From contig CAZMEZ010000002.1 of NCBI GenBank assembly GCA_964565425.1, forward strand, positions 13,953 to 77,952: 64,000 bases of DNA. Direction: 5' to 3'. Source of the stretch: an uncultured Planctomycetia bacterium (GTDB lineage: Bacteria; Omnitrophota; Gorgyraeia; Tantalellales; Tantalellaceae). A program made the position numbers and the translations under genes. Shown here piece by piece: positions 45,301 through 63,601 of the stretch; positions within the stretch are counted from its first letter, which is position 1; each line of letters begins with the position of its first letter. The notes beneath the pieces were generated by a model. That model searched no databases. It was not told the DNA's origin and worked only from the letters and a program-made list of their open reading frames with translations.

Positions 45301-48300
45301 TCTATCTCATGACGCATTTCGCCGAATTCGGGGACGCCATAAGGGAAACGGACAATCCGGTATTCGGTGTAATGGATTTCCTGCACAGCGCGGGAGACGA
45401 GAACTTCTATTATTTCCTGAGGAGGATATCCGCGTACACTTTCCGGGACCATTCCGGACAGGTCAATGTCGGGCCGAACCATCCGCTGAGATGCCGCACG
45501 AGGTGCGGCACCTACGGTCCGGACCTAGAGGGGGTCATAAGGGATTCCATACACAATAACCTCGGCGTTTACGTGCTGGGCCTCCTGGAAAGGTACCTGG
45601 AATTCTGCGAGACGGGCGATCACGGGATACTCGCCGACGAGAACTACCCGGTGGATGTCTTCAAGAACGACGAATTCCCGTCCCGGGACGCGGTCTTCCC
45701 GGAAGACACCGTTAAACTGTACGCGGTCCCCGAACCGGAGGATACGTATCCATCGAACAACAGGGGCATTATCAGAGAGATATTCGCCCAGCTGGAAGGC
45801 GACCTCGGGCGCCGAATAGGAGCCAGAGGGGAAACAAAGTGGGAAAAACTGAGGAACATTACCGACGAGCAGCTGCAGCTTGTATACGATGCCGTTAACG
45901 CGAAACTGGGGACCAGCATGCAGGCGCAATATTCGGGTTATTCCTTTTCAGGATACATATACGCTTATCGCGAGCTTTCCAGAAGGTACAAGAGAGTGGC
46001 CAGCATAGATACTCTCACCGGCAATCTCTTCGGCGTGGCCGCAAGACACAGGATCGCCAATGAAGCCATAGCCGGCCAGCGCTGGGCCGAAGACGACCAC
46101 CCGGTTTACGAGGCGATAAGAGGCAGCGATCCGATCGCGGCCCTGAAAACGATAACGGGATCGAAAAAGAAGATACGCGACAAGGTTTTCAGCGGGACAC
46201 TGGCGTACGACCGGTACGAGGTCATGGAACAGTTCGAACAGGAATGGGGCAGGGATGACGTGGGCAACGCTTACGGGGGCGCCTGGGTAAGGGACGATCT
46301 CGTAGGTTTATACATGGCTGATAATGTCCTCACCATGGTGCAGAACATGCACATAGAGAACATATCGAAGGAATTCATGGAAATAGACGGGTCGAATGTC
46401 GTAAAGGCCCTGGAATATCTCAGTGTGCTGGCCGAATTGAGTTACACGGAGGGCCTTATCTCCAGGTCCTTCAAGGACCATATCGTCACGCTGCTGGACC
46501 AGAAGGGCCTCGATGTTTCGGTGGCCAGGGACGTCATAAATTTCATGCAGCAGGAATTCGTCGAGATAAGGAATTATATCGTCCAGAACGCCGAGAACTA
46601 TATACACGCCATGCTCGATGCCGAGGGAATATACGGTAAAAAGAGAGAGGAAGAATTCGATAGGAGGCTAAACGGCATTTTGAACAGCGACAGGGTGTTC
46701 CGTTCCGCCAGGGCGCTTATAACCAGGCTCGGCAAGTACGCCGAAACGCGGGAAGGAACGTTCATGGAAGCGGCTACCGCCGAACCGTTCGAAGAAGAGC
46801 CCAAACTCTTCGGGGGTACGGTCCCGGCGGAGACCGTAGAAAAAACCGTTTCGGCCGGAAGGTATAAACTTTCGGCTAAAGGGCTTGAGCTGGCCAGGAC
46901 GTCTCTGGAAGGCATCCCCATACCCGAAGGTGTGATAATCCCGGCGACGGTATCCGATAAAGATACGGGCGGACTTGCCGAAAAAGGCCTGAAGACGCTG
47001 CAGGATCACCTGGACGGGGTCGAAGGCCTGAGGGGCATGAAGTTCGGTTCCGCCGAAAACCCCCTTGTGGTTTCGGTGAGGTCGGGAGCCTACATAGTGA
47101 TGCCCGGACAGATGCCCACGATAGCGAATGTCGGACTTTGCCGTGACACCATGGACGGGTTCACCGCCCGGCTGGTAAAACGCGGCGTGGATCCCCGTGA
47201 CGCGCGGTGGACGGCATGGGATTCGTATTCAAGGTTCCTGCAGAGTTACGCCGTTTCCGTTCTCGGCATAAGCGAGCAGCATTTTGACGCCCGCAGGGAA
47301 AAAATGCTGGAGGACGGGGGTGTGACCGATGTGCGTGAACTTCCGCTTGATAAGATGAAGAGCATGGCCGGCGGGTTCGAAAGGATCATTACCGACATAG
47401 CCGGTGAAGATAAACTGCCGGTGACCGCCGGGGAGCAGTTCAAGTATTGCGTGGAAGCCGTCAAAAAATCGTGGGCCGAATCGATCGATTACCGCGATAA
47501 CGTGGGGATAAAAGGCAAATGGCCGGGAACGGCAGTGATAATACAGCGCATGGTCTTCGGCAACATAAACAAGGATTCGGGCGCGGGCGTCATAAACTCG
47601 CGCATGGTGAACGTGCGAAAACTGGGCCTGGAGGGCGATTTCCTGTGGTTCGGACAGGGGGACGATATCGCGCAGCACAGGGCCGAGGACCTGGTCCAGA
47701 TACAGGATGTCCCGGATGATACGCCATGGAAGAAAGACCTTGAGAAATACGCCGAACTTATCGAAACGTCCCTGGGGACACTGGCCGAGATAGAATTCAC
47801 CGTGGAGCTGGGCAAGGTATACATACTCCAGGTCAGGGACGCTTATGTCGATATAAGGGCTTCGGATTACCTGTTCATTCCTTCAGAAGGAGATCTCCTG
47901 GCCCGCCGGCAGCGGGTCATACCGGCTTCCGGCGGAGCTTACAGGGGTATGGTATATATTCTCCACGGACGCGCGCCCGATATGAGAGAGATAGACCGCA
48001 TGTATAAAAGATCCAGGAAAGCCGGCGGCGACGGCGTGATAATAGTGGCGGACGACCTCGGCCCGGAACAGCTCGGTAAGCTTATAGTCAGGGACGAGGA
48101 AGGGCGCCTTAAGATAGGCGGTCTGATAACGAGGCGCGGAGGGAAACTTTCGCACGCCGGCGATATAGCCAGGAACCATCGCATGGCCGCGATAGCCAAC
48201 GTCAAGGATATAAAGTTCCCGAAGCATGTCAGGAAGAAAAGGAGTTTTATTATAAACGACAGGCGTGTCCAGGAAGGCGAAATGCTTTCCATTTCCGGGA

Positions 48301-51087: not shown

Positions 51088-51116
51088 TTGACATATAGCC
51101 CTATTTGCGATATACT
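51088..51116 (+). promoter_or_regulatory. Sigma-70-type promoter upstream of ORF3: TTGACA, 17-bp spacer, TATACT
   Basis: TTGACA at 51,088-51,093 and TATACT at 51,111-51,116. A second TATAAT at 51,183-51,188 lies 30 nt downstream of the conserved 15-mer. Confidence 0.5.
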
Positions 51117-51152: not shown

Positions 51153-51224
51153 ACGCAGGGCACGTGGAGTGTGTCTTGTGTATATAATAATAAGAACAAA
51201 TTTGGAGAGAGAAGGAGAAAAATC

Positions 51225-54200
51225 ATGAATAAGCCCAAAAGATCCCCAATCTTTAAGGCAGTAAGCCTTTTTCTGGTGCTGGCGTTCTCATTATACAATG
51301 TGAGCTTCGCCGTCACGCAGGACAATATCGGCAAACCGGATACGGTCGATGTGACCGGGCCTCTTTCGGTAGAGGACATCGGCATAGCGATCGATTGCGG
51401 GACGATAAAGTCCAGGTTCAACGGTGACGCGGACAAGGTCATCGTTCACATCCAGGACGCGCACTGTAACTACGAAGCGCAGTCCAACATAAACAGGATG
51501 CTGGACCAGATCACTAAGGAATGCGGGATAGGCATCATATCGGTCGAGGGCGCGGAGGGGATCGTCGACACGACATGGTTCAGGGCATTTCCGGACGCCG
51601 AGATACGCAAGGAAGTGGCGACTTACTTCATGAAAAAAGGCGAGATAACGGGCGCCGAATTTTTCTCCATAACCTCCGATTTCCGTGGAACCATCTTCGG
51701 GGCGGAGACCAGGGACTACTACGTGAGGAACCTCAGGGCCTTCACGGACGTCTACCCCTACAAGGAGACCATCGAGAACTACTTCACCAACGTGCGGACG
51801 GTAGCCAACCGGCTGAAATCCGTGGTATATCCCGCTCAGCTCAGGGAACTGGACCAGAAGATAAGGGCTTTCGACGATAAGGATATAGAGCTCAGCGACT
51901 ACGCGGAATACCTGAACAAGATGACGCGGAAATACCGCGTGGACCTCAAGGATTGCGGGAACTTCGATAAGCTCACGCAAACGCTGGAATACGAGAACAA
52001 GATAGACTTCGATACCGTCGACCAGGAAAGGAGCGAATACATAGACGTTATCAGCAAGAAGCTGTCCAAGGAGGACATGACGGAACTGGTGACGCAGAGT
52101 ATCAGGTTCAAGAAGGGTCACATAAAAGCCGTTGACTTTTATTCCTATCTCAGGGACCTCGCGAAGGATAACAGCGTCGATATGGTCCATGAATACCCGA
52201 ACCTCTTCTATTACTATATTTACACCAAGCTTTACGACGGGATCGACAACGAGGGACTTTTCAGGGAGATAGACCTTGCGGAGATCCGCTTAAAGGACAA
52301 ACTCTTCAAGGACGAGACGCAGAGGAAACTGGATAAGTATTCCCGCATGGTCGACATGTTCGTCGACCTCACTAACATAGAGCTTACGAACGAGGATTAC
52401 GACACTTTCAAGGGTTATTCCAAGGAATTCTCTCTCGAGGACACGCTGGAGTTCTTCAAGGGGCTGGTCGACAAGTATAACCTGAACTACGCTATCGACG
52501 GACTTCCTGTCCAGATCGGCGAGAACATCCCCAAAATGGTGGATTTTTACGAGATCGCCATAAAGAGGGACAATGCCCTGATAGACAACACGCTGGATCA
52601 GATGAAGAAAGAGAAACAGGACAGGTGCGTCCTTATAGCCGGCGGTTTTCACACCAGGGGCATAAAGGACATACTCGAGAAGAAAGGCGTTTCTTACGTG
52701 GTCGTCACGCCGAAGATAACGAAGAACGTGGACACCCCGTATATCAAGGTGTTGACCAACCAGAGGACGTCGCTCGAGGACATAATCACCGAAAGCGCGG
52801 TCGTCCCCGGTATAGGGATAACCGCTTCGCGCGAGGAGATAGTCCGGCCGAAAGGCGACATGCTGAGCCCGCTCGCGAGGGTGGCGTACACGATACCCAT
52901 GTATCTCAACAAGCCCGGGGACCTGAAGGAACTTTCCGACGCGGTGGGCGCGGTTCAGGGGAGATCCCTCGAGGACGCCGCGGTGGAGTCTTACAAGGAA
53001 ATGATAGCCGCTCTCGTAAGGGGCTGGCTCATGAAGGTAAGAGAGAACGCCGCCCCGGAGGTATGGGCGACGGCCATAGAGAACTGGCATCTCCTTCTGG
53101 GCGCGTATCTCAAGAAATACGAGGAAGAAGCCGCGAAACAGGGCGTCCAGGTCATAGAAGGGCTCCGCGTGCCGGCGGCGATGCTTACGGCGGAACAGGC
53201 GGCGGCGGTAAGCCAGGAGTTCAGGGCTATATTCGAGGAGGAGGTCAAGAGAAGCAAGACCCCCGGCGCCGAAGCCATAAGGCTGGACGACAAGAACGAT
53301 CTTTATGAATCGCTTACGCCCGAGGAGGCCGCGGCGCTCGATGAGGTAATAGCGGGGATAATGTCGAAGATAGATACTACCCGCGAAAGCCGTTTGGCCC
53401 ACACGACGGAGATAATGGTCGAAAACGTCGACGCAAATACGGGCAAGACCGTTAAAAAAGCCATGGAAGTCTGGAAACTCCCGGGCTTCAGGGAAGCCAT
53501 AGAGAAATATAATGCCGCGCACGAAGCGCGGATACCGCTTGATGTGCGAGTGCACCCGGGCACCGGCAGGGGGACCTGGACGCGCATGTACATCGACGAG
53601 AGGGATTTCGCGGCGCTGGACGAAACGCAGGCGCAACGCTTGGCAAATCACGAATATTATCATATACTAAACCCTGATAAGAGCGAGAAGGACGCGATCG
53701 ATGTCCAAAAGGACGACCTCATGGACGTGCGTCTCGCTTTCATAGAAGCGGAAAAAGAAAGACTGAGACTCAAGGCCGAAGAGGAGAAGAGAGTGAAGGA
53801 AGCGCTTCTCACCAATTCGAAAGCTATGGCGGAAGCCGCCGACAAGGGCGTAGGTCCCGACATCGTCATGATCGTAAGCTCCACCGACGAGCAGGCCGAT
53901 TTCTGGCAGAAACGCCTTACCGGCAAGGATGCCGTTCACGGCTCGGGCGAGATCGTGAAGACCGGCGCCGTCGTTCTTTCCGTGCCGGAATCCAACTGGA
54001 AGGGCGGGGCCGGGAACGGTCTGGGGACGCTGAACGGTTTTGTCCAGGCCGCGAGAAAAGCGCGCGACCTGAAACTTATAGATGTCCCGGACGACGCCCC
54101 GATAGAGGAACTTATAAGGGTTTTCATGTTTTATATCAGGGGCAAGAGCTCCTTCATGTTCCACACGGCGGGTAAAGGCACGCGCACCGCGCCGCTTCCC

Positions 54201-57200
54201 GGGGCGGAAGTTAACTCAAAACCCAACATCAAACTTCCCAAGATGGTCGAGGTGGAAGGGAAACGGCAACCGGTCACCATCCTTGAATCGGTCCTAATGG
54301 AGACGAGCATATACGCTCCTTCAAGGAAGAACCGCCTGAGCGTTTTCTGGGGCGACCAGGTGATAGTAAACGAGGAGAACATAGATTTCGGGAAAAGGCA
54401 TCACGTGGAGATATTCGGGCAGAAGGTGCCGCTGGACAGGGAGATCGAGGCGTACGGTGTCCTTATCCCCGGCGAAGAAGGCGATTGCAAACAGAGGGAG
54501 AAACTCGCGCTTGACGACGTGAAGAAGGTGCTTCCCGCCGGCAGCGATGAAGTATACAAGAGCATAGGTTCTTTCACCGTTTCACTCGGTTTCCTGAACG
54601 CTTTGATGAGCATGAAAGAGCACATGGAAGCGCTCAAGAAAGCCGAAGGCAGCCTCAATACCGACCCGGACTGGTGGCAGCCGCTTACCTCTGCGCGTAA
54701 CGAATATATCGAGATGCAGGGCAAGAAAGGCGTCGACGCGAAAAAGGCCGGGGCCCAGTGGGACAGGATGAACAAGTTCTGGGAAGATTTCGAAGGCAGC
54801 GGCGAATACCTGGGAGAGGCCCTGGACCGCAAGATAGGGTTCAACGACGTAGGCCCCAATTCCTACTGGTGGGATTACGGCCAGAATAAATTCTACCTCA
54901 GGAACATGCAGATACTGACCGAGGATTCCATGGAAGGCGAGGCCGCCAGGAACTTCTTCGGCGTCGAGGAAGGCAAGTGGGTGGACGCCTCTTCCGATAC
55001 CGGTGAAGCCGTCATCGAGAACTCGATAGTCCAGAACTCCGCCATAAAGAAGGGGAGCCTCAAGAACTGCGTCGTTATAGACTGCACGCTGGACGAGGTC
55101 TACGCGGAGAACGCCGTTATCATAGGTAGTACTATATTAAAACTTAACGCGGACGGGGCTTTGTGCTACAATGTCGTGGACCATGACGTAAGCCTCCGCG
55201 AAGGTCAGCTTCTTGCGAACATATTCCATCCCGAGCTCGGTCGCTTCGCCATGCGCACCGACACGACCAGGGACGGCCAGACCGATTGGAACGGTAAGGT
55301 ATACGTGTATGATAACCAGTACACCTATCCCCAGGTTTCCGATCTGATGAAGGGCGTCAAGATGGAGGATGTCGAGCAGGCCAGGCAAAACGCGGTAGCG
55401 AATCTCAGGACGACCGACCGCATGAGCGGCGCGGAACTCGCGCAGAGATTAAGCGATGCCAGGGGCATCAGCATCGAGTCGGCGCGCGAGCTTGTGGCCC
55501 GCAGGATGCTTGTATTCGGGGACATCCAGTATTTTTACGACACCACTTATATGGATACATTCGGCGTATCAAAAGACAAGGCAGAACAGGAAGTCGACGA
55601 GGTCGGAATGGCCGGGAAGGGCGTGACGCAGGTTGAGTATAACACTTCGCTTAACGCGGACAACATGGCCGGCCTGGTTGCCAGGCTGGAATCCGCCGGC
55701 GTCCTTAATGCCGTGCGGAAAAAGCAGCTTATCGCGGCTTTGACCTACCGGAAGGTGGAAGACGTGACCGACGAAGACCTCCAGAAATACGTTCGCGCGT
55801 CGGATCTCACCGATCTTAATTTCCTTTTTGACGTTCTTAAGGAGACCGACGCCCTGTACGGGATAGATCTCGCTGAGCTCGGTATAGCCGAAAAGACTCA
55901 AATGGTGGACGTGAGCTTGCCGGAACAAGCCAGGGAAGAAGTCCTGAAGAAGTCTCTTAAAGAAGGCCTCAGGTTCGGTACAAGCGGCCTCAGAGATTTC
56001 GTAGAGAACATGCCCGACGTCGAAGTTTATATCAACACGCGCGGTTTTGTTAAATTCCTCAAGGAAAGAGGCGAGATCGACGGGAAGAACAACGTGATCG
56101 GCCTTGCCGGCGACCTCAGGGCGAGTACGCCCAGGATAATAGCGGCCGTCGCGAAGGCCATAGAGGACGAGGGTTGCAGGGTGGATTTCCAGGGGCTTGT
56201 CCCCAGCCCGACGATCGCGTACTATGCGATGCAGAAAGACATGCCCAGCATCATGGTCACCGGCAGCCACATACCCGAGGTCATGAACGGCATAAAGTTC
56301 ACCAGGAAAAGCGGTGAGGTGCTTAAGAGCGACGAGGACCCGATAAACGAACATGTTAAGGAAGCAAGGGCCGAAGAGTACGCCAAAAACTGGGATAAAT
56401 CCCTTTTCAACGGGCGCGGCATGTTCAACGTCAAACGTCCGGCTCCGGGAGCGAAGGCGGACGCGGAAACGGTTTACGTGCAAAGATATCTCGATGTTTT
56501 TCCGAAAGACGCCCTTAAGGGCAAGAAGGTGGTTTTCTACCAGCACAAGGCTGTAGGAAGAGATATAACCGCGGGAGTGTTCGCCGCGCTCGGCGCGACG
56601 GTCATTATAGAAGGAAGAAGCGAAAAGTTCGTCCCGATAGATACGGAAAAGGTCCCGGATTCCACGAGGGCCCTTTTCAGGGAATGGGCGAAAAAGCACG
56701 ATCCCGATCTTATCATATTCACCGACGGCGATTCGGACAGGCCGGGGCTGGTGGACGAGACCGGTGAATACCTTACCGGCGACTGTCTCGGCGCTCTTGT
56801 ATCGATGTACCTGAAGCCGCAGGCCGTGGGCCTTCCGGTGAGCGCCAATGATGCGGTGGTCGAAGCCCTTAAGGCGTCGGGGATAAAGGTTACTCCTACA
56901 AGGATAGGTTCACCGTATGTTATCGCGGCGATGAACGGTTATCTTGCCGCCGATCCGGACATGAAGGTCGCGGGCTGGGAATCGAACGGAGGGTATCTCC
57001 TGGGGAGCGACTGGACTATAAACGGAAAAACGCTCAAGGCGTTACCGACGAGAGACGCCATCCTGCCGCTGCTGGTAACGGCTATCTTCGCCAAGGAGCA
57101 GGGCGTGAAGATGTCGGAGCTCATAGCGTCCAGATTGCCGGCAAGATACGTCGTTTCGGACGCGGTCAACAACAAGATGGAAGGATGCGAGGCCTATACT

Positions 57201-59897
57201 CCCGATATGGGAAAGAGAATAGTCAAGGCCTATACGCCCGAAGGGACGAACGTGGTCCAGGTCGAGTACAGGATGGGGCCGGACGAGCGCACGCCGCTCT
57301 ATTATGTGTTGCGCGAAGACGGGACCGAAGGCGTAGCGTCACCGGATATGGCCGTAAAACTTGAGAATATAAGACAGCAGCTCGCGGCATATTTTCCGCC
57401 CGACAGAGGGCTTGGAGAGATAACCTACATAAATTTCATGGACGGTATAAAGATGCGTTTCGCGAGCGAAGACGGCATACATATAAGGCCGTCGGGCAAC
57501 GAGCCGATCATGAGGTTCTATGTCCAGTCTCCCAGACCGGAACGCGCCAAGAGTATAGTGGACGCCAAACTCGATTATATGCGTCCCTTGATCAGAGATT
57601 TCTCCGCTCCGGCGACGCCGGGCATGCAGGCGGTAAGGGTGGATACCGAGATGGGCAAGGCCATAGCCGCGCTCGATCAGGCGATAAAGGAAGGGAAACC
57701 CGTCCATTTCGTCCCGTCTTTCAGGACCGGAAAGGACGGCTACACGTGGGGGCAGGACGTGAGGGACAATTTCATCCTTGGGCTCATGGGCGCCAAGACC
57801 GCCGAAGAGAGGATAGCGCTTGCCGAGAAATACGGTATACCCGCGAACGAGGTCATCGGCGAAAGATGGATAACCTCGGGGCTCGTCGAGGCCGAAGGCA
57901 AACAACTGCCTAACCGGATCCTGGCCCTCTGGCCGGAACAGGTGCCGGGAAGCAAGATAACGGCTAAGGCCCTTACGTCGGGCAGGCCGCTGTCGCTCCA
58001 GTACCACAGGTTTCCAGAGATGATCGTCCCGCTCGAGGACGGCTATGCTTACCTGGGACTTAACAAGGACGTCACGCCCCAGCAGTTCATGGATAATCTC
58101 CGAAAAGGGGACGTCAGCATGTTCAACAGGGTGGAGCTCAGGAAGGGCCGGCCCGTTATCGTCCCGCCTTACATGATACACGCCTACGGCATCGTGAGGG
58201 TATACGAGGTAAAAGCCGTGACGGCTGCCGAAGACAAGGCCGGGACCATATCTTTTTACGACAGGTTGCGCCTTGATCCCGCGCAGCAGGCGGAAGTTGC
58301 TAAGATAGTCGAGGATAATACACCGGATGAAGCTGCCCGGATATTGGTAGCAAAAGGCATCGTACGGCCCAAAAAGGACGTACTTACGCTGCCTGCCGAG
58401 ACCACCCAGGCGATAGCGGCCGAACTCGAGAGGGCCGGGGCGCTTAACAGGTCCGATCTTTCGGTGGCGTATTTCACGCCGGTTGTCGTGACGGAACAGC
58501 CCGGCGTTAAATACGAAATAATGGGCCAGGCGCCGGGTTTTGTTACCGGAAGATATACCCTTGATGAGGCGAAGACCATGCGGGTGGCCCCGGCGATACA
58601 GGGCAAACAGCATTCCGTGTTCGTTACCGAGGGCACGGTAAGGATACTTAACGATAAGGGAGAAGAGATCGACGTCCTCACGCAGGGCGAAGAAAGGATG
58701 TTCCCTACCAGCGTGGGTACATACAGCATAACGGCCGTTGAGGGTTCGGCGGCGGTCTATACGCAGTATACCCCGGAGACCCCGACAAGGGCCACGCCGA
58801 TCCAGATGGAGACCGGCGAACGCACGATAGCAGATCTGGCGGAAAGCGTGCCTTCTTACGTGGCCACGGGCGTGGTAACGCCCGAGGATGCCATGACGGA
58901 CGTGGTAGAGGTGAATACCGCCGTCAGGTTCGACGTCCTGCCCGTCCAGGACGGGCGCGATTTCGTCGTGGATGTCGTAGCCGGGAGCATATCACTCATA
59001 GCGGACGGAGAAAGGCTTGCCGTTTACGAAAAAGGCGATACGCTGCTGGTAAGCGAGGATAATATCATCGACAATAAGGGGCGGATAATCGACCGTCTCG
59101 AGCTCGGTAAATACGAACTGGTAAAAGAGGGGACGGTGCCGGCAACGGTCGAGGTGAGATACCCCAAGACCGAGGCGGAAAAGATAGTATATACCGTCTA
59201 TGACATGCTCAAGAAACACATCGACGAGATAAAAGCCGGGCAGGTCGATCTTATACTGCCGGACGAGATGTTCGTCCCCGGCGGAAAGAACAGCGTAGGG
59301 TCCGCGCTCTGGGAACAGGAACAGCTTAGAAGGTACGTAAGCGACAAGATAAGGATAAGCACTTACAGCTCGCATATGGGCCTCAAGGAAGCCGCCAAGA
59401 AGAGCCTGAATAAAGGCGCGGTAGGCATTCTCGTGGCCACGGAGTCCAACATCAAGGATGCCGACAGGGATGATCCCGAGCTCAGGGACTTCCTGCAGGG
59501 CAGGAAAGGGACCCTGAGGACCCTTGCCATACCGGACCTGGACGATCTCGGGGAAAAAGGGTGGTATTTCAACCGCGAAGTCGAAGGTACGGCACTGCTC
59601 CTCGCGAGCGTTACGCCGGAGCAGATAAAGGTCGAAGGCGAGGACAACGCCGCCGATGACCTGCAGCGCCTCATGTCGCAGCTTGTGGGTAAGCCGGTCC
59701 CGAGGCAGTATCTTTATTACATGCTGTCGTACGACGAGATAGGCGACATGTTGACCAAGCTTCCCGCGGAACTCCAGGAAGATCCGTACGGCTGGCTGCG
59801 TTTTGTGGTGCAGAATCTGCTCCTCAAGATGCCGATCAAGCCGTTCGACGCCACAGAACAGCTCCACCAGAGAAGGAAGATCATGTGGTCGGTATAA
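51225..59897 (+). CDS. Giant multidomain membrane-anchored protein, 2,891 aa, with fused sugar-nucleotide biosynthesis domains
   Basis: The ATG at 51,225 is preceded by a strong SD, gagaaggagaaaaatc, with AAGGAG 8 nt upstream. The ORF track's GTG start at 51,171 has no SD. N-terminal anchor IFKAVSLFLVLAFSLYNVSFA. Terminator lies downstream. Confidence 0.9.
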   Translation: MNKPKRSPIFKAVSLFLVLAFSLYNVSFAVTQDNIGKPDTVDVTGPLSVEDIGIAIDCGTIKSRFNGDADKVIVHIQDAHCNYEAQSNINRMLDQITKECGIGIISVEGAEGIVDTTWFRAFPDAEIRKEVATYFMKKGEITGAEFFSITSDFRGTIFGAETRDYYVRNLRAFTDVYPYKETIENYFTNVRTVANRLKSVVYPAQLRELDQKIRAFDDKDIELSDYAEYLNKMTRKYRVDLKDCGNFDKLTQTLEYENKIDFDTVDQERSEYIDVISKKLSKEDMTELVTQSIRFKKGHIKAVDFYSYLRDLAKDNSVDMVHEYPNLFYYYIYTKLYDGIDNEGLFREIDLAEIRLKDKLFKDETQRKLDKYSRMVDMFVDLTNIELTNEDYDTFKGYSKEFSLEDTLEFFKGLVDKYNLNYAIDGLPVQIGENIPKMVDFYEIAIKRDNALIDNTLDQMKKEKQDRCVLIAGGFHTRGIKDILEKKGVSYVVVTPKITKNVDTPYIKVLTNQRTSLEDIITESAVVPGIGITASREEIVRPKGDMLSPLARVAYTIPMYLNKPGDLKELSDAVGAVQGRSLEDAAVESYKEMIAALVRGWLMKVRENAAPEVWATAIENWHLLLGAYLKKYEEEAAKQGVQVIEGLRVPAAMLTAEQAAAVSQEFRAIFEEEVKRSKTPGAEAIRLDDKNDLYESLTPEEAAALDEVIAGIMSKIDTTRESRLAHTTEIMVENVDANTGKTVKKAMEVWKLPGFREAIEKYNAAHEARIPLDVRVHPGTGRGTWTRMYIDERDFAALDETQAQRLANHEYYHILNPDKSEKDAIDVQKDDLMDVRLAFIEAEKERLRLKAEEEKRVKEALLTNSKAMAEAADKGVGPDIVMIVSSTDEQADFWQKRLTGKDAVHGSGEIVKTGAVVLSVPESNWKGGAGNGLGTLNGFVQAARKARDLKLIDVPDDAPIEELIRVFMFYIRGKSSFMFHTAGKGTRTAPLPGAEVNSKPNIKLPKMVEVEGKRQPVTILESVLMETSIYAPSRKNRLSVFWGDQVIVNEENIDFGKRHHVEIFGQKVPLDREIEAYGVLIPGEEGDCKQREKLALDDVKKVLPAGSDEVYKSIGSFTVSLGFLNALMSMKEHMEALKKAEGSLNTDPDWWQPLTSARNEYIEMQGKKGVDAKKAGAQWDRMNKFWEDFEGSGEYLGEALDRKIGFNDVGPNSYWWDYGQNKFYLRNMQILTEDSMEGEAARNFFGVEEGKWVDASSDTGEAVIENSIVQNSAIKKGSLKNCVVIDCTLDEVYAENAVIIGSTILKLNADGALCYNVVDHDVSLREGQLLANIFHPELGRFAMRTDTTRDGQTDWNGKVYVYDNQYTYPQVSDLMKGVKMEDVEQARQNAVANLRTTDRMSGAELAQRLSDARGISIESARELVARRMLVFGDIQYFYDTTYMDTFGVSKDKAEQEVDEVGMAGKGVTQVEYNTSLNADNMAGLVARLESAGVLNAVRKKQLIAALTYRKVEDVTDEDLQKYVRASDLTDLNFLFDVLKETDALYGIDLAELGIAEKTQMVDVSLPEQAREEVLKKSLKEGLRFGTSGLRDFVENMPDVEVYINTRGFVKFLKERGEIDGKNNVIGLAGDLRASTPRIIAAVAKAIEDEGCRVDFQGLVPSPTIAYYAMQKDMPSIMVTGSHIPEVMNGIKFTRKSGEVLKSDEDPINEHVKEARAEEYAKNWDKSLFNGRGMFNVKRPAPGAKADAETVYVQRYLDVFPKDALKGKKVVFYQHKAVGRDITAGVFAALGATVIIEGRSEKFVPIDTEKVPDSTRALFREWAKKHDPDLIIFTDGDSDRPGLVDETGEYLTGDCLGALVSMYLKPQAVGLPVSANDAVVEALKASGIKVTPTRIGSPYVIAAMNGYLAADPDMKVAGWESNGGYLLGSDWTINGKTLKALPTRDAILPLLVTAIFAKEQGVKMSELIASRLPARYVVSDAVNNKMEGCEAYTPDMGKRIVKAYTPEGTNVVQVEYRMGPDERTPLYYVLREDGTEGVASPDMAVKLENIRQQLAAYFPPDRGLGEITYINFMDGIKMRFASEDGIHIRPSGNEPIMRFYVQSPRPERAKSIVDAKLDYMRPLIRDFSAPATPGMQAVRVDTEMGKAIAALDQAIKEGKPVHFVPSFRTGKDGYTWGQDVRDNFILGLMGAKTAEERIALAEKYGIPANEVIGERWITSGLVEAEGKQLPNRILALWPEQVPGSKITAKALTSGRPLSLQYHRFPEMIVPLEDGYAYLGLNKDVTPQQFMDNLRKGDVSMFNRVELRKGRPVIVPPYMIHAYGIVRVYEVKAVTAAEDKAGTISFYDRLRLDPAQQAEVAKIVEDNTPDEAARILVAKGIVRPKKDVLTLPAETTQAIAAELERAGALNRSDLSVAYFTPVVVTEQPGVKYEIMGQAPGFVTGRYTLDEAKTMRVAPAIQGKQHSVFVTEGTVRILNDKGEEIDVLTQGEERMFPTSVGTYSITAVEGSAAVYTQYTPETPTRATPIQMETGERTIADLAESVPSYVATGVVTPEDAMTDVVEVNTAVRFDVLPVQDGRDFVVDVVAGSISLIADGERLAVYEKGDTLLVSEDNIIDNKGRIIDRLELGKYELVKEGTVPATVEVRYPKTEAEKIVYTVYDMLKKHIDEIKAGQVDLILPDEMFVPGGKNSVGSALWEQEQLRRYVSDKIRISTYSSHMGLKEAAKKSLNKGAVGILVATESNIKDADRDDPELRDFLQGRKGTLRTLAIPDLDDLGEKGWYFNREVEGTALLLASVTPEQIKVEGEDNAADDLQRLMSQLVGKPVPRQYLYYMLSYDEIGDMLTKLPAELQEDPYGWLRFVVQNLLLKMPIKPFDATEQLHQRRKIMWSV
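51430..52770 (+). other. Shared N-terminal domain, paralogue of ORF2 33,520-34,900
   Basis: See alignment in feature 33,520-34,900. Confidence 0.4.
53850..55200 (+). other. NDP-sugar pyrophosphorylase (nucleotidyltransferase) domain followed by a left-handed beta-helix hexapeptide repeat
   Basis: HTAGKGTRTAPLPGAE at about 54,160-54,210, compared with the GGxGTRLxPLT signature. LSVFWGDQVIV. Hexapeptide-like VIENSIVQNSAIKKGSLKNCVVIDCTLDEVYAENAVIIGSTILKLNADGALCYNVV at 55,005-55,180. Confidence 0.5.
55960..57560 (+). other. Alpha-D-phosphohexomutase (phosphoglucomutase/phosphomannomutase) domain, complete
   Basis: LRFGTSGLRDF compared with FGTDGIRG. Active-site loop MVTGSHIPEVMNGIKF compared with TASHNPxxDNGIK. 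Metal-binding loop IFTDGDSDRPGLVDETGEYLTGD compared with FDGDGDR. Sugar-phosphate loop GIHIRPSGNEPIMRFYVQS compared with RPSGTEP. Confidence 0.7.
57900..58760 (+). other. Type-I phosphomannose-isomerase-like cupin domain(s)
   Basis: GRPLSLQYHRFPEM matches the type-I PMI zinc-site motif LS[IV]Q.H (Gln/His ligands). Downstream MIHAYG. A second beta-rich cupin-like stretch VAPAIQGKQHSVFVTEGTVRILNDKGEEIDVLTQGEERMFP. Confidence 0.4.
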
Positions 59898-59968: not shown

Positions 59969-60048
59969 ATATCAGGGCTATATAAAACTTTTATATAATG
60001 GTATTTACGTTAATATAAAAGTTCGTTAAAACGTTATATTACATATAG

Positions 60049-60077
60049 TTGACAGAACAGTTGAATTTTTGTAAAAT
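60049..60077 (+). promoter_or_regulatory. Promoter for the ABC permease operon: TTGACA, 17-bp spacer, TAAAAT
   Basis: TTGACA at 60,049-60,054 and TAAAAT at 60,072-60,077 in an AT-rich spacer, about 55 nt upstream of the ATG at 60,132 (SD taaggtgg). Confidence 0.55.
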
Positions 60078-60131
60078 AAGTTCTCCTGCCTAAGGGATTT
60101 CAGGCTTTCGGTTGAATCATTAAGGTGGTTA

Positions 60132-61040
60132 ATGGAACAGGAATCGTTTTTACAGAAACTTAATAAACAGAAGATCTCCTATCTTTTTATAGCATTACCG
60201 GCGATACTCTTCTTTACATTCCAGCTCGCCCCTGTTTTCATATCCTTTTTATGGTCCTTTACCGAATACGACGTCGTGCACGCGCCCCGGTTCGTAGGGC
60301 TTGCCAATTACAGGAACATACTGACGGGCGACCCGCTTTTCTGGAAGGCCATGAGGAACACGGTATTGTATGTGCTGGGAGTGGTCCCGGTGAGCGTATG
60401 CCTTTCGCTCCTGCTGGCCGTCGCCATAGACCAGAAGATAAAGTTCAGGAATTTCTTTAAATCCATATTTTTCCTGCCCACGGTAACCGCCATAGTGGCC
60501 GTATCGGTCATATGGAAGTGGTTATACGCGGGAGAAAAGTACGGCCTTTTGAACTATTTTCTCCTAAAACTGGGGTTTCGGCCCGTAGACTGGCTTGCGA
60601 GCCCTACATGGACATTGCCTTCAATAATGATAATGTCCATATGGGCCGGGATCGGCTATAACATGATACTTTTTTTAGCGGGATTACAGACCATCCCGCA
60701 TGTCATGTATGAGGTGGCCGAGATAGACGGGGCAGGGTTCTGGACCAAATTTTTCAAAGTGACACTGCCGCTCCTCAAACCCATTATAGTATTCGTCAGT
60801 TTGATGAGCTTCATATTCAGTTTTCAGGTATTCGAACAGGTGTACATAATGACGGGCGATCAGGGCTCAATAGGCGGCGTCTTGAGTTGCGCCCTCACTA
60901 TAGTAGCTTACCTTTACGATAAAGGTTTCCAGAAGTTCCAGATGGGATACGCCTCGGCGCTGGCTTATATCATCTTCTCGCTCATATTCATACTTACGAT
61001 GATAAATAAGCGTCTTATGAGAGCTAACGTGGAGTATTGA
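60132..61040 (+). CDS. Carbohydrate ABC transporter permease, MalF/UgpA family
   Basis: 302 aa with six TM helices. N-terminal FIALPAILFFTFQLAPVFISFLWSFTEYD. Conserved loop IPHVMYEVAEIDGAGFWTKFFKVTLPLLKPIIVFVSLMSF is the EAA motif of BPD_transp_1. Confidence 0.85.
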   Translation: MEQESFLQKLNKQKISYLFIALPAILFFTFQLAPVFISFLWSFTEYDVVHAPRFVGLANYRNILTGDPLFWKAMRNTVLYVLGVVPVSVCLSLLLAVAIDQKIKFRNFFKSIFFLPTVTAIVAVSVIWKWLYAGEKYGLLNYFLLKLGFRPVDWLASPTWTLPSIMIMSIWAGIGYNMILFLAGLQTIPHVMYEVAEIDGAGFWTKFFKVTLPLLKPIIVFVSLMSFIFSFQVFEQVYIMTGDQGSIGGVLSCALTIVAYLYDKGFQKFQMGYASALAYIIFSLIFILTMINKRLMRANVEY

Positions 61041-61068
61041 TACAGCTGTAAGCTTTAAGCTGTAAGCT

Positions 61069-61953
61069 TTGAGATGTAAGTCAAATATCATGGAAAAAGG
61101 GATAATGACACAGGGAATAGGTATCAGGAAGGATCTGTTCACGATAAAGACCTTCATATATATCTTTCTCGTGGCCGGAGCGGTTACGATGGTGATCCCG
61201 TATCTCTGGATGTTCGTAACGTCAATAAAGCCGCTGGAAGAGATACAATCTTATCCGCCCGGTTTTATAGTAAAGAATCCCACGCTGGAGCCGTACAGGG
61301 ACCTTTTCAGGATGATACCCATGATGCGGTATCTTTTTAACAGTCTTTTCGTGGCCGGGTCCGTAACGCTTTTCAACGTCTTCGCTACGTCATTGGCGGG
61401 TTACGCCTTCGCGAAACACGAGTTCTGGGGCAGGGATAAGCTGTTCTTTATATTTCTGGGATCCCTCATGATACCGTGGCAGGTCAACATAATTCCGGGG
61501 TTCGTTATAGTGAAGAAGCTCGGATGGCTGAACACCTACAGGGGGCTCATAATACCATCCATGGCGTGGTGCGCTTTCGGTATATTCCTTAGCCGGCAAT
61601 ATATATACAGTATTCCCGATGATCTTATCGACGCGGCCAGGATAGACGGATGCAGCGAGTTCATGATATACCGCAAAGTGATATTGCCGATCATAAAACC
61701 CGTTCTCGCGACGCTCGCGATCTTTACTTTTTTGCAGCAATGGAACAACTTTGTATGGCCGTTGGTGATCATCCATACCAGCGAGATGAGGACGATCCCG
61801 CTGGCGCTCGCGGTCCTGAGCGGACAGTTCGGCGTCAAGTTCAACATGATCATGGCGGGAGCGGTGATAGCGACATTGCCGATGATCGTGGTTTATATCT
61901 TATTTCAGAAATATATTATAAAGGGTGTCGCGTTAACGTGGCTTAAGGGGTGA
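61069..61953 (+). CDS. Carbohydrate ABC transporter permease, MalG/UgpE family. Start ambiguous: ATGs at 61,069, 61,090 and 61,105
   Basis: EAA loop DDLIDAARIDGCSEFMIYRKVILPIIKPVLATLAIFTF and typical MalG topology. Follows permease 1 after 28 bp. Confidence 0.85.
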   Translation: MRCKSNIMEKGIMTQGIGIRKDLFTIKTFIYIFLVAGAVTMVIPYLWMFVTSIKPLEEIQSYPPGFIVKNPTLEPYRDLFRMIPMMRYLFNSLFVAGSVTLFNVFATSLAGYAFAKHEFWGRDKLFFIFLGSLMIPWQVNIIPGFVIVKKLGWLNTYRGLIIPSMAWCAFGIFLSRQYIYSIPDDLIDAARIDGCSEFMIYRKVILPIIKPVLATLAIFTFLQQWNNFVWPLVIIHTSEMRTIPLALAVLSGQFGVKFNMIMAGAVIATLPMIVVYILFQKYIIKGVALTWLKG

Positions 61954-62002
61954 CGAGTGACGGGTGGCGCGTGACGGGTTACTGTAAAATAGAAAGGGTA
62001 AA

Positions 62003-63601
62003 ATGAAAAAAGCGATCGCGATATATTTGGCATGTATTTTAGGTGTTTTTACGATCTCCGGATGCGGCATGAAGGTAGAAGAGAAGGCCGAGGTAGAGGA
62101 GATAGGGCCGGTCGGGGTGGCGGAAGGCGAACCCATGGTATATCTCAAGGCTGTCGCGGCCGAGGTTTCGAGTTTTGACAAGACACCTGACTGGGCGCCC
62201 GAACCGAACCCGATGGCGCCCGCGGACGGGGACATGCTTACACGCTGGTCCAGCGATTACACCGAAGGTGACCAGTGGATATATTTTGACCTGGGCAAGC
62301 GGCGTACGGTAAGTGACGTTATAATAAGATGGGAGAGGGCCTACGCGACCAAATACCAGATCCTCGCGTCCGACGATGCCGAGAACTGGACCGTGGTCTA
62401 TGACGAGGAGAACAGCCAGGGCGGGGCGGTCGAATCGGTCTTCCCCCCCGTTAAATGCCGTTACGTGATGATCCTGGGCAAGGAGAGGGTCAACGAGGAT
62501 TGGGGCATATCCATATGGGAGGTCGAGCTATACGGGCCGCGGGCCAATAACCCGGATGTCGTGATGACCAAAGAAACATACCTCAGCAAGGGGGATGACG
62601 CCGGCAAAAAAGAAGAAGTGAAGCAACTCCTCGCGAAGCTTGCGGCAAAGCCCGTCCCGATAAAGAATAAGGAATTCCAGAAAGGCGTGGTTTATACCTC
62701 CTGGATGGCGGACGAACTTTCGATGCCGTCGTCCGACCTTACGCTCGCGTATCTGAAAGAGATCGGGTTCGACACCGTAGCCATAATGGTCCCCGCTTAC
62801 CAGGATGACCTCGATTCCAAGGAGGTCTTTACGAACGACAGGCCCGGCGGAGATACTCCGACCGACGAGGCGCTTATCCACTCTATAAAAACGTGCCATA
62901 GCATCGGCCTGAGGGTCGTTTTAAAGCCGCATGTCGACCCGAGAACGGACGAGGCGAGGATAAACATAATGCCTTCCGATGAGTGGTTCGATAGCTACGA
63001 GAAATTTGCCGTGAGGTACGCTCGCATGGCCGGGGAGCACGATGTGGAGATATATTCTATAGGGACGGAGCTTGAAGCGACCACCTTTTCAGCATGGGCG
63101 CATAGATGGGATCAGGTCATCGAAAAGGTAAAAGAGGTCTATGGAGGATTATTGACGTATTCCGCCAACTGGACGGAGTACAAGGAAGTCCCGTTCTGGG
63201 ACAAAATGGATTTCATAGGCCTGGATGCTTATTTTCCGCTCGCGGAAGTGAATGAACCTGCGCCGGAGGACCTGGTGCTTGCGTGGGAGGCGTTAGCTGA
63301 TGAGATAGAGAAGTGGCTGGGTGAAAGGGGTCTGGCCGGCAAGGGGGTCCTTCTCACGGAAATAGGTTATCCCTCGGCGGACGGCGCCGCCCGTCAGCCC
63401 TGGGTGGCCATATCGGACGCGGAAGACCAGGAGGAGCAGGCCGACTGTCTCAGGGCCACTTTCGAGGTGCTTTCAAAGCGCCCGTGGTTCAAGGGATATT
63501 ACATATGGCAGTATTTCCCGCAGGACAGGTGGAGTCCTCTCGGGTTCACCGTGAAGGGGAAGAAAGCGGAAGAAGTAATAAAGGAATGGCTGAAGAAGTA
63601 G
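62003..63601 (+). CDS. Lipoprotein: F5/8-type-C (discoidin/CBM32-like) domain fused to a clan GH-A (GH5/26/113-like) TIM-barrel glycoside hydrolase
   Basis: Lipobox MKKAIAIYLACILGVFTISGC. Discoidin-like MLTRWSSDYTEGDQWIYFDLGKRRTVSDVIIRWERAYATKYQILASDDAENWTVVY. Glycosidase-like IGTELEAT (acid/base Glu) and LLTEIGYPS (nucleophile Glu). Confidence 0.75.
   Translation: MKKAIAIYLACILGVFTISGCGMKVEEKAEVEEIGPVGVAEGEPMVYLKAVAAEVSSFDKTPDWAPEPNPMAPADGDMLTRWSSDYTEGDQWIYFDLGKRRTVSDVIIRWERAYATKYQILASDDAENWTVVYDEENSQGGAVESVFPPVKCRYVMILGKERVNEDWGISIWEVELYGPRANNPDVVMTKETYLSKGDDAGKKEEVKQLLAKLAAKPVPIKNKEFQKGVVYTSWMADELSMPSSDLTLAYLKEIGFDTVAIMVPAYQDDLDSKEVFTNDRPGGDTPTDEALIHSIKTCHSIGLRVVLKPHVDPRTDEARINIMPSDEWFDSYEKFAVRYARMAGEHDVEIYSIGTELEATTFSAWAHRWDQVIEKVKEVYGGLLTYSANWTEYKEVPFWDKMDFIGLDAYFPLAEVNEPAPEDLVLAWEALADEIEKWLGERGLAGKGVLLTEIGYPSADGAARQPWVAISDAEDQEEQADCLRATFEVLSKRPWFKGYYIWQYFPQDRWSPLGFTVKGKKAEEVIKEWLKK

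Follow-up and report, generated by a model that had tools for sequence, protein, structure and literature searches.

A locus in the genome of an uncultured bacterium of the phylum Omnitrophota (GTDB lineage Gorgyraeia, Tantalellales, Tantalellaceae; assembly GCA_964565425.1) raises the question of what three enzymes of sugar-phosphate metabolism are doing on one very long polypeptide, and in which direction sugars would pass through them. The window analysed is a stretch of 64,000 nucleotides of contig CAZMEZ010000002.1 (positions 13,953 to 77,952, forward strand). It holds three very long + strand open reading frames (ORFs): ORF1 (31-32976, 10981 aa), ORF2 (33324-51002, 5892 aa) and ORF3 (51171-59897), the subject of this work, an uninterrupted mechanical frame of 2908 codons that opens at GTG 51171. 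All window features described below lie on the + strand, and residue numbers of ORF3 count from that GTG. Homologous proteins are labelled P0002, P0122 and so on, and homologous loci compared with the window L001, L008 and so on. An earlier, sequence-only reading had placed a fused sugar-nucleotide pathway at 53850-58760 (ORF3 residues ~893-2530), with a nucleotidyltransferase bearing a left-handed beta-helix, then a mutase, then cupins. Three enzymes do lie there in that order, the first starting at 53853 (GPDIVMIV) and the last ending at 58778 (VYTQYTPE), and by fold and motif their activities cover the interconversion of fructose-6-phosphate, mannose-6-phosphate, mannose-1-phosphate and an NDP-mannose. 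The interpretation favoured here, with a probability of roughly 0.55, is that ORF3 is a mannose-phosphate hub of three intact enzymes at the metabolic end of a locus for beta-mannan or mannoside assimilation.

Three enzymes on one chain

The middle enzyme, an alpha-D-phosphohexomutase of four domains (residues 1601-2132, 55971..57566), is the one that a Pfam scan of ORF3 identifies, with matches to PGM_PMM_I (1.9e-16), II (3.3e-12) and III (1.2e-8) over residues 1601-1988, all above cut-off. PGM_PMM_IV stays sub-threshold (E 0.009, 16.5 bits against a cut-off of 23.1) and aligns to the C-terminal domain of PDB entry 4hjh. This Brucella melitensis protein, deposited as a phosphomannomutase, is the best solved relative of the mutase (5.1e-79), and all four catalytic loops align to it: the phosphoserine loop TGSHIPE (Ser1699, 56259-56279), shared by the two as TGSHIP(D/E), the metal loop TDGDSDRPG (DxDxDR), the sugar loop GWESNGG (E-x-x-G-G) and the phosphate loop RPSGNEP (R-x-S-G-x-x-P). 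ORF3 differs from 4hjh by an insertion before domain IV. The best NCBIfam matches on ORF3 are models of the GlmM/PGM/PMM type, all far under cut-off. Together, the loops and matches point to a phosphomannomutase/phosphoglucomutase (PMM/PGM) of putative sugar preference.

Upstream of the mutase lies a sugar-1-phosphate nucleotidyltransferase (NT; residues 896-1365, 53856..55265), recognized by its fold and motifs. The sequence-only reading had taken it for an enzyme of the PF00483 (NTP_transferase) and PF00132 (Hexapep) type, and neither model matched the isolated NT segment at E<=10. A single-sequence PDB search with NT was empty, and a family NT profile run against PDB sequences gave marginal matches only, to ADP-glucose pyrophosphorylases (AGPases; E 0.15-0.25), with a profile fragment aligned to the AGPase stretches GGAGTRLFPL and yWeDiGT. 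The AlphaFold2 (AF2) model (predicted local distance difference test score, pLDDT, 94.6; predicted TM-score, pTM, 0.93) has a Rossmann-like catalytic domain of the GT-A type (53856-55007) followed by a C-terminal left-handed beta-helix (55005-55265), as in AGPase, GDP-mannose pyrophosphorylase (GMPP), GlmU and FKP. Foldseek ranked first the GDP-fucose pyrophosphorylase (GFPP) half of Bacteroides fragilis FKP (9iis, 9e-11) and then AGPases; the two closest solved structures are the GTP-dependent enzymes GFPP and GMPPB. In an alignment of 41 sequences, 40 columns are invariant, including A-G-x-G-x-R...K, G-D-Q and W-D-x-G, and ORF3 retains every residue that is invariant in the family. Among these are R1005 and K1017 of the triphosphate loop G-x-G-T-R...K (HTAGKGTR...K, 54162-54239), D1062 of GDQ (within 54345-54362), K1111, and D1235 of WWDYG (54867-54884), so that the triphosphate loop and the two metal/phosphate-binding acidic residues of the nucleotidyltransferase superfamily are present. 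The spacing of H998/R1005, D1062 and K1111 equals that of FKP H73/R80, D136 and K187 when matched by eye, without superposition; the FKP residues have been assigned to triphosphate, Mg2+ and sugar-phosphate handling (PMC11982464). NT is thus a member of a distinct, unannotated FKP-like family. Helices after the beta-helix in the model form a C-terminal cap (to about residue 1415), and a linker of ~180 aa leads on to the mutase (cap and linker, 55266..55970); no family matched this region in a profile scan with isolated segments at E<=10. Stand-alone NT homologues (~530 aa) stop at about ORF3 residues 1406-1415.

The third enzyme, previously described as “PMI-like cupins”, is by profile and fold matches a whole type I phosphomannose isomerase (PMI; residues 2155-2536, 57633..58778), made of a catalytic cupin, a helical insert and a C-terminal cupin, and zinc-dependent to judge by its predicted ligands. 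The Pfam model PMI_typeI_cat (PF20511 / PF01238) has no match on ORF3 at E<=10, isolated segments included, and the stand-alone PMM-PMI protein of L001 reaches 19.4 bits against the PMI model's cut-off of 22. With the PMI segment, a single-sequence PDB search (phmmer) was empty and a word-indexed homologue search gave a single fragment. An exhaustive search of 1.84 billion representatives with residues 2140-2908 recovered 123 clusters (50% identity). A 30-sequence PMI alignment compared with the Pfam-positive PMI domain of P0074 gave an hhalign probability of 99.0% (E 2.3e-17), and the PMI family profile run against PDB sequences (hmmsearch) found 1zx5 (2e-8), 1qwr (1.1e-6) and 1pmi (6.5e-5). 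Residues 2155-2908 were folded as one AF2 model, with pLDDT >90 across the PMI part, and Foldseek matched it to the Bacillus subtilis PMI 1qwr (1.4e-14, target TM-score 0.74) as well as to 1zx5, Salmonella 2wfp/3h1m and Candida 1pmi, all above generic bicupins. Putative zinc ligands are Q2277, H2279, E2283 and H2337, which are kept in the family consensus; the motif LSLQYH stands at 57990-58007, and the Q-x-H...E...H pattern aligns to Q111/H113/E138/H285 of the Candida enzyme (“SIQAH...KPEM...PHAY”). Compared with 1qwr, the loop that separates QxH from the Glu ligand is shorter in ORF3, and the helical insert is longer.

In direct scans, two of the three enzyme families therefore returned no profile match, an outcome that by the sequence-only reading's own rule meant rejection. 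Family profiles and predicted folds overturned that outcome, and catalytic motifs are kept in each of the three enzymes.

Truncated or degenerate copies occur in some relatives, such as the giant protein of L001, which has only the first ~210 NT residues (28% identity), and the ORF3 PMI has Phe in place of the Lys found two residues before the zinc-binding Glu (Salmonella K132, Candida K136). These observations would fit domains that have lost catalysis and serve for binding or as a scaffold in a large surface protein. Such a role is most improbable: ORF3 keeps every invariant residue of the NT family, the full set of four mutase loops and the four PMI zinc ligands, and NT is 59-61% identical to stand-alone enzymes.

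The NT family and its association with mannose enzymes

A homologue search with ORF3 residues 880-1400 (window 53808-55370) found 595 proteins, and a search from a Triparma member found 1194 at E<=1e-20. Nearly all of the homologues listed are ~530 aa long, and none carries a nucleotidyltransferase Pfam domain; PF00483 and PF00132 are absent from their precomputed Pfam domains. Identity of the ORF3 domain to Omnitrophota homologues is 43-61%, and to a large set of stramenopile eukaryote proteins ~34% over 96% of the length. The family extends over the Planctomycetes-Verrucomicrobia-Chlamydiae (PVC) group, Chloroflexota, bacteria of the candidate phyla radiation (CPR), some archaea and stramenopile eukaryotes. 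Proteins annotated “uncharacterized protein” represent it in Thalassiosira pseudonana, Chaetoceros, Skeletonema, Seminavis, Triparma, Ectocarpus, Undaria and oomycetes (homologues P0087, P0105, P0269, P0290, P0352 and P0355 were noted with the family in diatoms, bolidophytes, brown algae, oomycetes, bacteria and archaea).

Evidence on substrate came from the genes that accompany NT. A scan of GTDB species genomes gave 128 NT-family loci. At 15 of the 20 prokaryotic loci examined, mostly outside Omnitrophota, NT and PMI form one uninterrupted ORF (L024, L026-L028, L035, L040, L045-L049, L051, L054, L062 and L066), and at the other 5 the two genes are adjacent. A further NT-PMI fusion is P0074 (L004 8001-10508). 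The fusion proteins are ~800-835 aa long with a type I PMI moiety, and their hosts include Dehalococcoidia, Desulfobacterales, Halobacteriota archaea, Ca. Tritonobacter and an Omnitrophota metagenome-assembled genome. A mutase gene lies directly upstream of NT in L006, L039, L044, L052 and L071. Because NT is fused to PMI and neighbours the mutase, it is tied to mannose metabolism. Given also its GTP-dependent structural neighbours, the best inference is that NT makes GDP-mannose from mannose-1-phosphate and GTP.

By predicted activity, these NT-PMI fusions (P0074 and the 15 loci) are functional analogues of the type II PMI-GMP enzymes (ManC/AlgA/XanB), which also carry a mannose-1-phosphate guanylyltransferase and a cupin PMI on one chain. 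The likeness is one of function and not of family, as the type II PMI-GMP models PF00483 and PF01050 have no match on ORF3. Unlike in PMI-GMP, NT is not PF00483 by sequence, the isomerase is of type I (1qwr-like) and not a type II cupin, and in ORF3 the PMM stands between NT and PMI inside a protein of 2.9 kaa. With the GDP-fucose pyrophosphorylase of B. fragilis FKP (9iis, 9iit) and FPGT, NT shares a Rossmann-like domain, a short left-handed beta-helix, a helical cap and, matched by eye, the H-x-G-G-x-x-x-R loop and the spacing of the Asp and Lys. Unlike FKP, to which it is 11% identical, NT has no match to the Pfam fucose-pyrophosphorylase model and is never fused here to a GHMP fucokinase, but to PMI and PMM.

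AGPases are strong structural matches of NT, the best NCBIfam matches of the mutase are of the GlmM/PGM type (under cut-off, as noted above), and PGM is often combined with starch-synthase domains on giant Omnitrophota proteins, according to a preprint (10.64898/2026.06.07.730766). These observations would suit other substrates, with the mutase a phosphoglucomutase, NT making ADP-, UDP- or GDP-glucose or another NDP-hexose for glucan metabolism, and the PMI-like part an unrelated cupin. This set of activities is very unlikely in view of the recurrence of NT-PMI fusions in many phyla, the deposition of the mutase's best PDB match, 4hjh, as a phosphomannomutase, and the mannan-specific neighbours described below.

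The eukaryotic members bear on a gap in algal metabolism. Brown algae and diatoms have been reported to lack a canonical mannose-1-phosphate guanylyltransferase (PMC5778160, PMC4396506). Since diatoms have separate FKP genes (PMC12732313), the NT family is not their fucose-salvage enzyme; an identification of NT as the FKP/GFPP of diatoms or brown algae was rejected for the same reason, as those are separate genes. The repeated fusion of NT to PMI and its position beside PMM make it a concrete candidate for a second, non-canonical type of GDP-mannose pyrophosphorylase, the enzyme reported missing from these algae. The odds on this proposal are about even, and it is independent of the compartment in which ORF3 acts. 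With this candidate, a long-standing gap in precursor synthesis for alginate, fucoidan and N-glycans becomes directly testable.

A proposed locus for mannan assimilation

Mannan is a polysaccharide of plants and algae. Downstream of ORF3 are two ABC sugar-transporter permeases (60132..61040, Pfam BPD_transp_1 9e-14; and 61069..61953, BPD_transp_1 7e-20) and a lipoprotein with F5/8 type C and GH113 domains (62003..63601; GH113 1e-47, F5_F8_type_C 3e-21, lipobox ...TISGC), GH113 being a beta-mannanase/mannosidase family. This company is conserved. In at least 10 Omnitrophota genomes, NT, PMM and PMI, fused or as adjacent genes, lie upstream of the permeases, GH113 and CBM27 genes. The order NT, PMM-PMI, permease 1, permease 2, GH113 was found in L001, L010, L013, L014 and L018-L021 (tblastn; NT identity 45-60%), usually with CBM27 proteins and in places with a second GH113, which in L010 and L019 lies further along. 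Permease 1 is a conserved neighbour, 75-88% identical and syntenic in these loci and in L008, and permease 2 is likewise syntenic; the GH113 lipoprotein is syntenic as well, and in relatives CBM27 proteins and another GH113 come after it. L008 has the fused ORF3-type form, followed by the permeases (88% and 83%), GH113 (77%) and a CBM27 protein. The fused arrangement also occurs in L009, L012 and L022, and in L011 without the mutase. In the locus of P0002, a stand-alone NT 60% identical to that of ORF3, the order is a long protein (N-terminal domain, degenerate NT, PGM, C-terminal domain), a CBM27/Mann_GBD protein, NT, a 948-aa PMM-PMI, two permeases, GH113 and CBM27 proteins.

These neighbours suggest how the hub might be supplied. 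CBM27 proteins and GH113 lipoproteins would capture and cut mannan outside the cell, the two permeases would import the products, and a putative kinase or phosphorylase would phosphorylate imported mannose products before the ORF3 steps. The three ORF3 enzymes would then interconvert fructose-6-phosphate, mannose-6-phosphate, mannose-1-phosphate and, probably, GDP-mannose, with PMI leading mannose phosphates toward fructose-6-phosphate and glycolysis, and PMM and the FKP-like, probably GTP-dependent NT leading them toward GDP-mannose. The scheme has a parallel in the mannan locus (MULL) of Roseburia intestinalis, where GH113, an ABC importer, PMM/PGM and PMI occur together and mannan-derived mannose-1-phosphate is passed to fructose-6-phosphate and glycolysis (PMC6385246). 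Unlike in MULL, a GH130 phosphorylase, an epimerase, GH26 and a regulator are not seen in the ORF3 locus, and the ORF3 enzymes are fused, carried on a long signal-peptide-bearing protein and joined by NT. Mannan loci with PMM and PMI were thus already known, as were bifunctional PMI-GMP enzymes and PGM/PMM domains on giant Omnitrophota proteins. The new elements here are the recognition of two cryptic enzymes that complete a three-step pathway on one chain, the mannan-locus synteny, and the NT family.

The same three activities, whose reactions are reversible, could instead serve a membrane-tethered anabolic factory that channels fructose-6-phosphate to GDP-mannose for glycosylation or export by the neighbouring giant proteins, as the sequence-only reading had supposed. 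An export apparatus is indeed nearby, in that ORF1 has SecA-like and TolC/OEP-like domains and many hydrophobic segments, and the N-terminal domain of ORF3 also occurs in ORF2. Yet ORF1-3 and the surroundings of ORF3 yielded no glycosyltransferase, flippase or polysaccharide-export domain, and the partners of ORF3 across genomes are genes of mannan degradation and import, in place of proteins of the ORF1 or ORF2 type. The N-terminus has the look of a cleavable signal and not of an anchor, and relatives add transaldolase and further mutase domains, pointing to central sugar-phosphate metabolism. The factory is therefore an unlikely account. Because GH113, CBM27 and an ABC importer recur beside the three enzymes, a role in mannan or mannose assimilation with a branch to GDP-mannose is favoured over a purely anabolic one in the service of the giants.

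The N-terminus and the site of action

The sequence-only reading had called ORF3 membrane-anchored. Hydropathy scans found a single hydrophobic stretch, at residues 30-48, in the context MNKPKRSPIFK-AVSLFLVLAFSLY-NVSFA, then VTQ. Together with the pattern of n-, h- and c-regions in relatives, the scans predict a Sec signal peptide, MNKPKRSPIFKAVSLFLVLAFSLYNVSFA, before VTQ (residues 19-47, 51225..51311), with a K/R-rich n-region, an h-region of 13-15 residues and a c-region “YNVSFA|V”. The basic n-region, the h-region and the “N(V/I)SFA” motif are kept in most of the 31 relatives' N-termini examined, and the ORF3 N-terminus is comparable with the signals of the locus's extracytoplasmic proteins, the GH113 lipobox TISGC and the CBM27 ...VVHA before ED. 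It thus looks like a cleavable Sec signal peptide, not a membrane anchor, and predicts export. The possibility that a second transmembrane segment brings the enzymes back into the cytoplasm was considered and rejected: beyond residues 30-48, a 19-residue Kyte-Doolittle scan of ORF3 has a maximum of 1.54, and its best candidates lie inside enzyme domains.

Could ORF3 then be an exported metabolic string, secreted by Sec and freed of its signal peptide? It would work in the periplasm, or within or at the surface of a host or prey cell, on sugar phosphates and nucleotide sugars taken from a lysed or attached host. Run catabolically, from GDP-mannose through mannose-1-phosphate and mannose-6-phosphate to fructose-6-phosphate, such a string would follow the N-to-C order of the domains, beside mannan-harvesting genes. 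It would also account for the family-wide signal-peptide-like N-terminus with its “SFA|” site and for the lack of any other hydrophobic segment; adjoining ORF1 has SecA- and TolC-like parts, and preprints predict the metabolic domains of giant Omnitrophota proteins to be extracellular and propose predation (10.1101/2023.11.21.568195). We nevertheless consider an exported string quite unlikely. The enzymes need Mg2+ or Zn2+, a hexose-bisphosphate activator and a nucleoside triphosphate or pyrophosphate, none of which is expected outside cells, and the means of delivery is hypothetical. Moreover, the closest NT and PMM relatives have no signal peptide in the same type of locus (P0002 for NT, and the 948-aa PMM-PMI), which supports a cytoplasmic site of action for the hub.

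Several observations nonetheless weigh against ORF3 as a cytoplasmic hub of mannan assimilation. Its Sec signal peptide is textbook-like and family-wide, and with no second hydrophobic segment, all three enzymes would by standard topology rules lie outside the cytoplasm, in surroundings not expected to contain GTP or sugar phosphates. The step of entry into the phosphate pool is missing, as ORF1-3 and the flanks yielded neither a hexokinase nor a ROK kinase nor a GH130 phosphorylase. The replacement of Lys by Phe beside the zinc-binding Glu could alter PMI activity, and the ORF3 PMI is of the long-protein type, unlike the stand-alone PMI type. For this last reason, ORF3 as a simple fusion of neighbouring stand-alone genes was rejected. 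While folds, catalytic motifs, domain order, recurrence of the architecture and synteny are observed, the mannose and GTP specificity (from fusions and structural neighbours), the physiological direction and the cytoplasmic site of action are inferred. Finally, ORF3 and the permease gene each have a promoter-like site of their own, which leaves their co-transcription hypothetical.

A modular family of long proteins

ORF3 is a member of a protein family conserved in Omnitrophota. At ~2.4-5 kaa, its members begin with a signal-peptide-like N-terminus and an N-terminal domain, continue with a string of sugar-phosphate enzymes that varies between them, and close with a C-terminal domain ending ...RRKxMWSV. 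Complete members of the 123 clusters are proteins of ~2-5 kaa with the end domains of ORF3, between which the representative clusters carry the combinations NT-PMM-PMI, NT-PMM, PMM-PMI and NT-PMI. P0122, from an independent assembly, is collinear with ORF3 at 66% identity over residues 20-2908, and since collinear orthologues occur in independent assemblies, an assembly or frameshift artefact as the source of ORF3 is ruled out. In P0126 (residues 2550-2922) and P0149 (residues 3263-3439), these end domains flank a transaldolase/F6P-aldolase or CofD-like domain. The family seems to serve generally as a scaffold for enzymes that act on sugar phosphates. The fusion is thus as unusual as had been claimed when set against characterised enzymes, whereas within Omnitrophota it is one form of a recurrent modular family.

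The family N-terminal domain (residues ~50-545, 51318..52805) is present in most long relatives. It had been described as shared, which is true of ORF2 (30% identity over 529 aa, BLASTP) and not of ORF1, where it was not found. Its Pfam matches are sub-threshold only, and it has no PDB sequence match. Between this domain and NT is a HEYYH motif (residues 827-831, 53649..53663) with a weak PhageMetallopep match (E 0.022); relative P0030 has HELAH at the corresponding place. The motif may be a zinc-metallopeptidase-like site, which could process the long protein. After PMI come a small beta-sandwich or cupin-like domain (residues 2553-2666, 58827..59168), all-beta in the AF2 model (pLDDT ~65-87) and kept in many relatives, and the family C-terminal alpha/beta domain (residues 2667-2908, 59169..59894; AF2 secondary structure), which ends ...QRRKIMWSV. 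The ending ...QRRKxMWSV is nearly invariant, the domain always stands at the extreme C-terminus, and most of the 123 representative clusters have a match to its region. Single-sequence phmmer found no PDB match for it, and Foldseek on the model of residues 2155-2908 gave it no fold match, bicupins filling the match list. The C-terminal domain may be a sorting or assembly signal.

In L001/L002, a long protein of the signal-peptide type with a degenerate half-NT and a PGM (1-7208) lies beside intact NT and PMM-PMI genes without signal peptides (8001-12482). At this locus, the window's organism and L008 carry the fused, intact version alone. The same enzymes are therefore signal-peptide-less neighbours in some genomes and part of a signal-peptide-bearing protein in others, which sharpens the question of where giant Omnitrophota proteins act.

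ORF3 resembles the giant proteins of Omnitrophota (“Archaeovorins” and others), apparently the same phylum, in its N-terminal signal sequence and its string of sugar-phosphate enzymes. Two preprints already report PGM/PMM and PPDK_N domains on such proteins and raise the puzzle of where their metabolic domains are located (10.1101/2023.11.21.568195; 10.64898/2026.06.07.730766). Unlike those giants, ORF3 is smaller (2.9 kaa), and its NT and PMI are of kinds invisible to the Pfam-based surveys in these preprints; the passages of them that were searched make no mention of mannan-locus synteny. Pfam and NCBIfam missed two of the three ORF3 enzymes, so that surveys of the domains on giant Omnitrophota proteins, which so far list only PGM/PMM here, overlook whole pathways.

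Further features of the window

The likely coding sequence of ORF3 runs from ATG 51225 (M19), with an AGGAG box 7 nt upstream, to the stop (51225..59897). A promoter-like site, TTGACA-17-TATACT, lies at 51088..51116; it agrees with the consensus at 11 of 12 positions and is a consensus match only. GC content along ORF3 is even, at 0.53-0.56.

ORF1 has SecA_DEAD, SecA_PP_bind and P-loop_SecA matches at residues ~1025-1627, a match to an outer-membrane efflux domain (OEP, TolC-like) at residues ~3610-3776 and ~25 hydrophobic segments. It looks like parts of a secretion apparatus in one giant protein, beside the signal-peptide-bearing ORF2 and ORF3. ORF2 has a signal-peptide-like N-terminus as ORF3 does, and its last ~390 residues are common to ORF1 (26% identity, ending ...LYIYLP...). 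PPDK_N and PEP-utilizers domains at residues ~4570-4995 of ORF2 form a possible phosphotransfer module, and the protein has ~9 hydrophobic segments.

In L001 (13631-16171), gene calling gives a single 846-aa product for the second permease and the GH113 lipoprotein. An internal lipoprotein start (MKKV...LSGC) is visible in it, so that two genes have probably been joined by in-frame read-through. Over the two permease genes of the window (60001-62000), GC falls to 0.46, against ~0.55 elsewhere, and the sign of the AT skew flips. Both genes are syntenic in relatives, at 75-88% identity, and the drop probably reflects the composition of genes for hydrophobic membrane proteins and is not a mark of foreign DNA.

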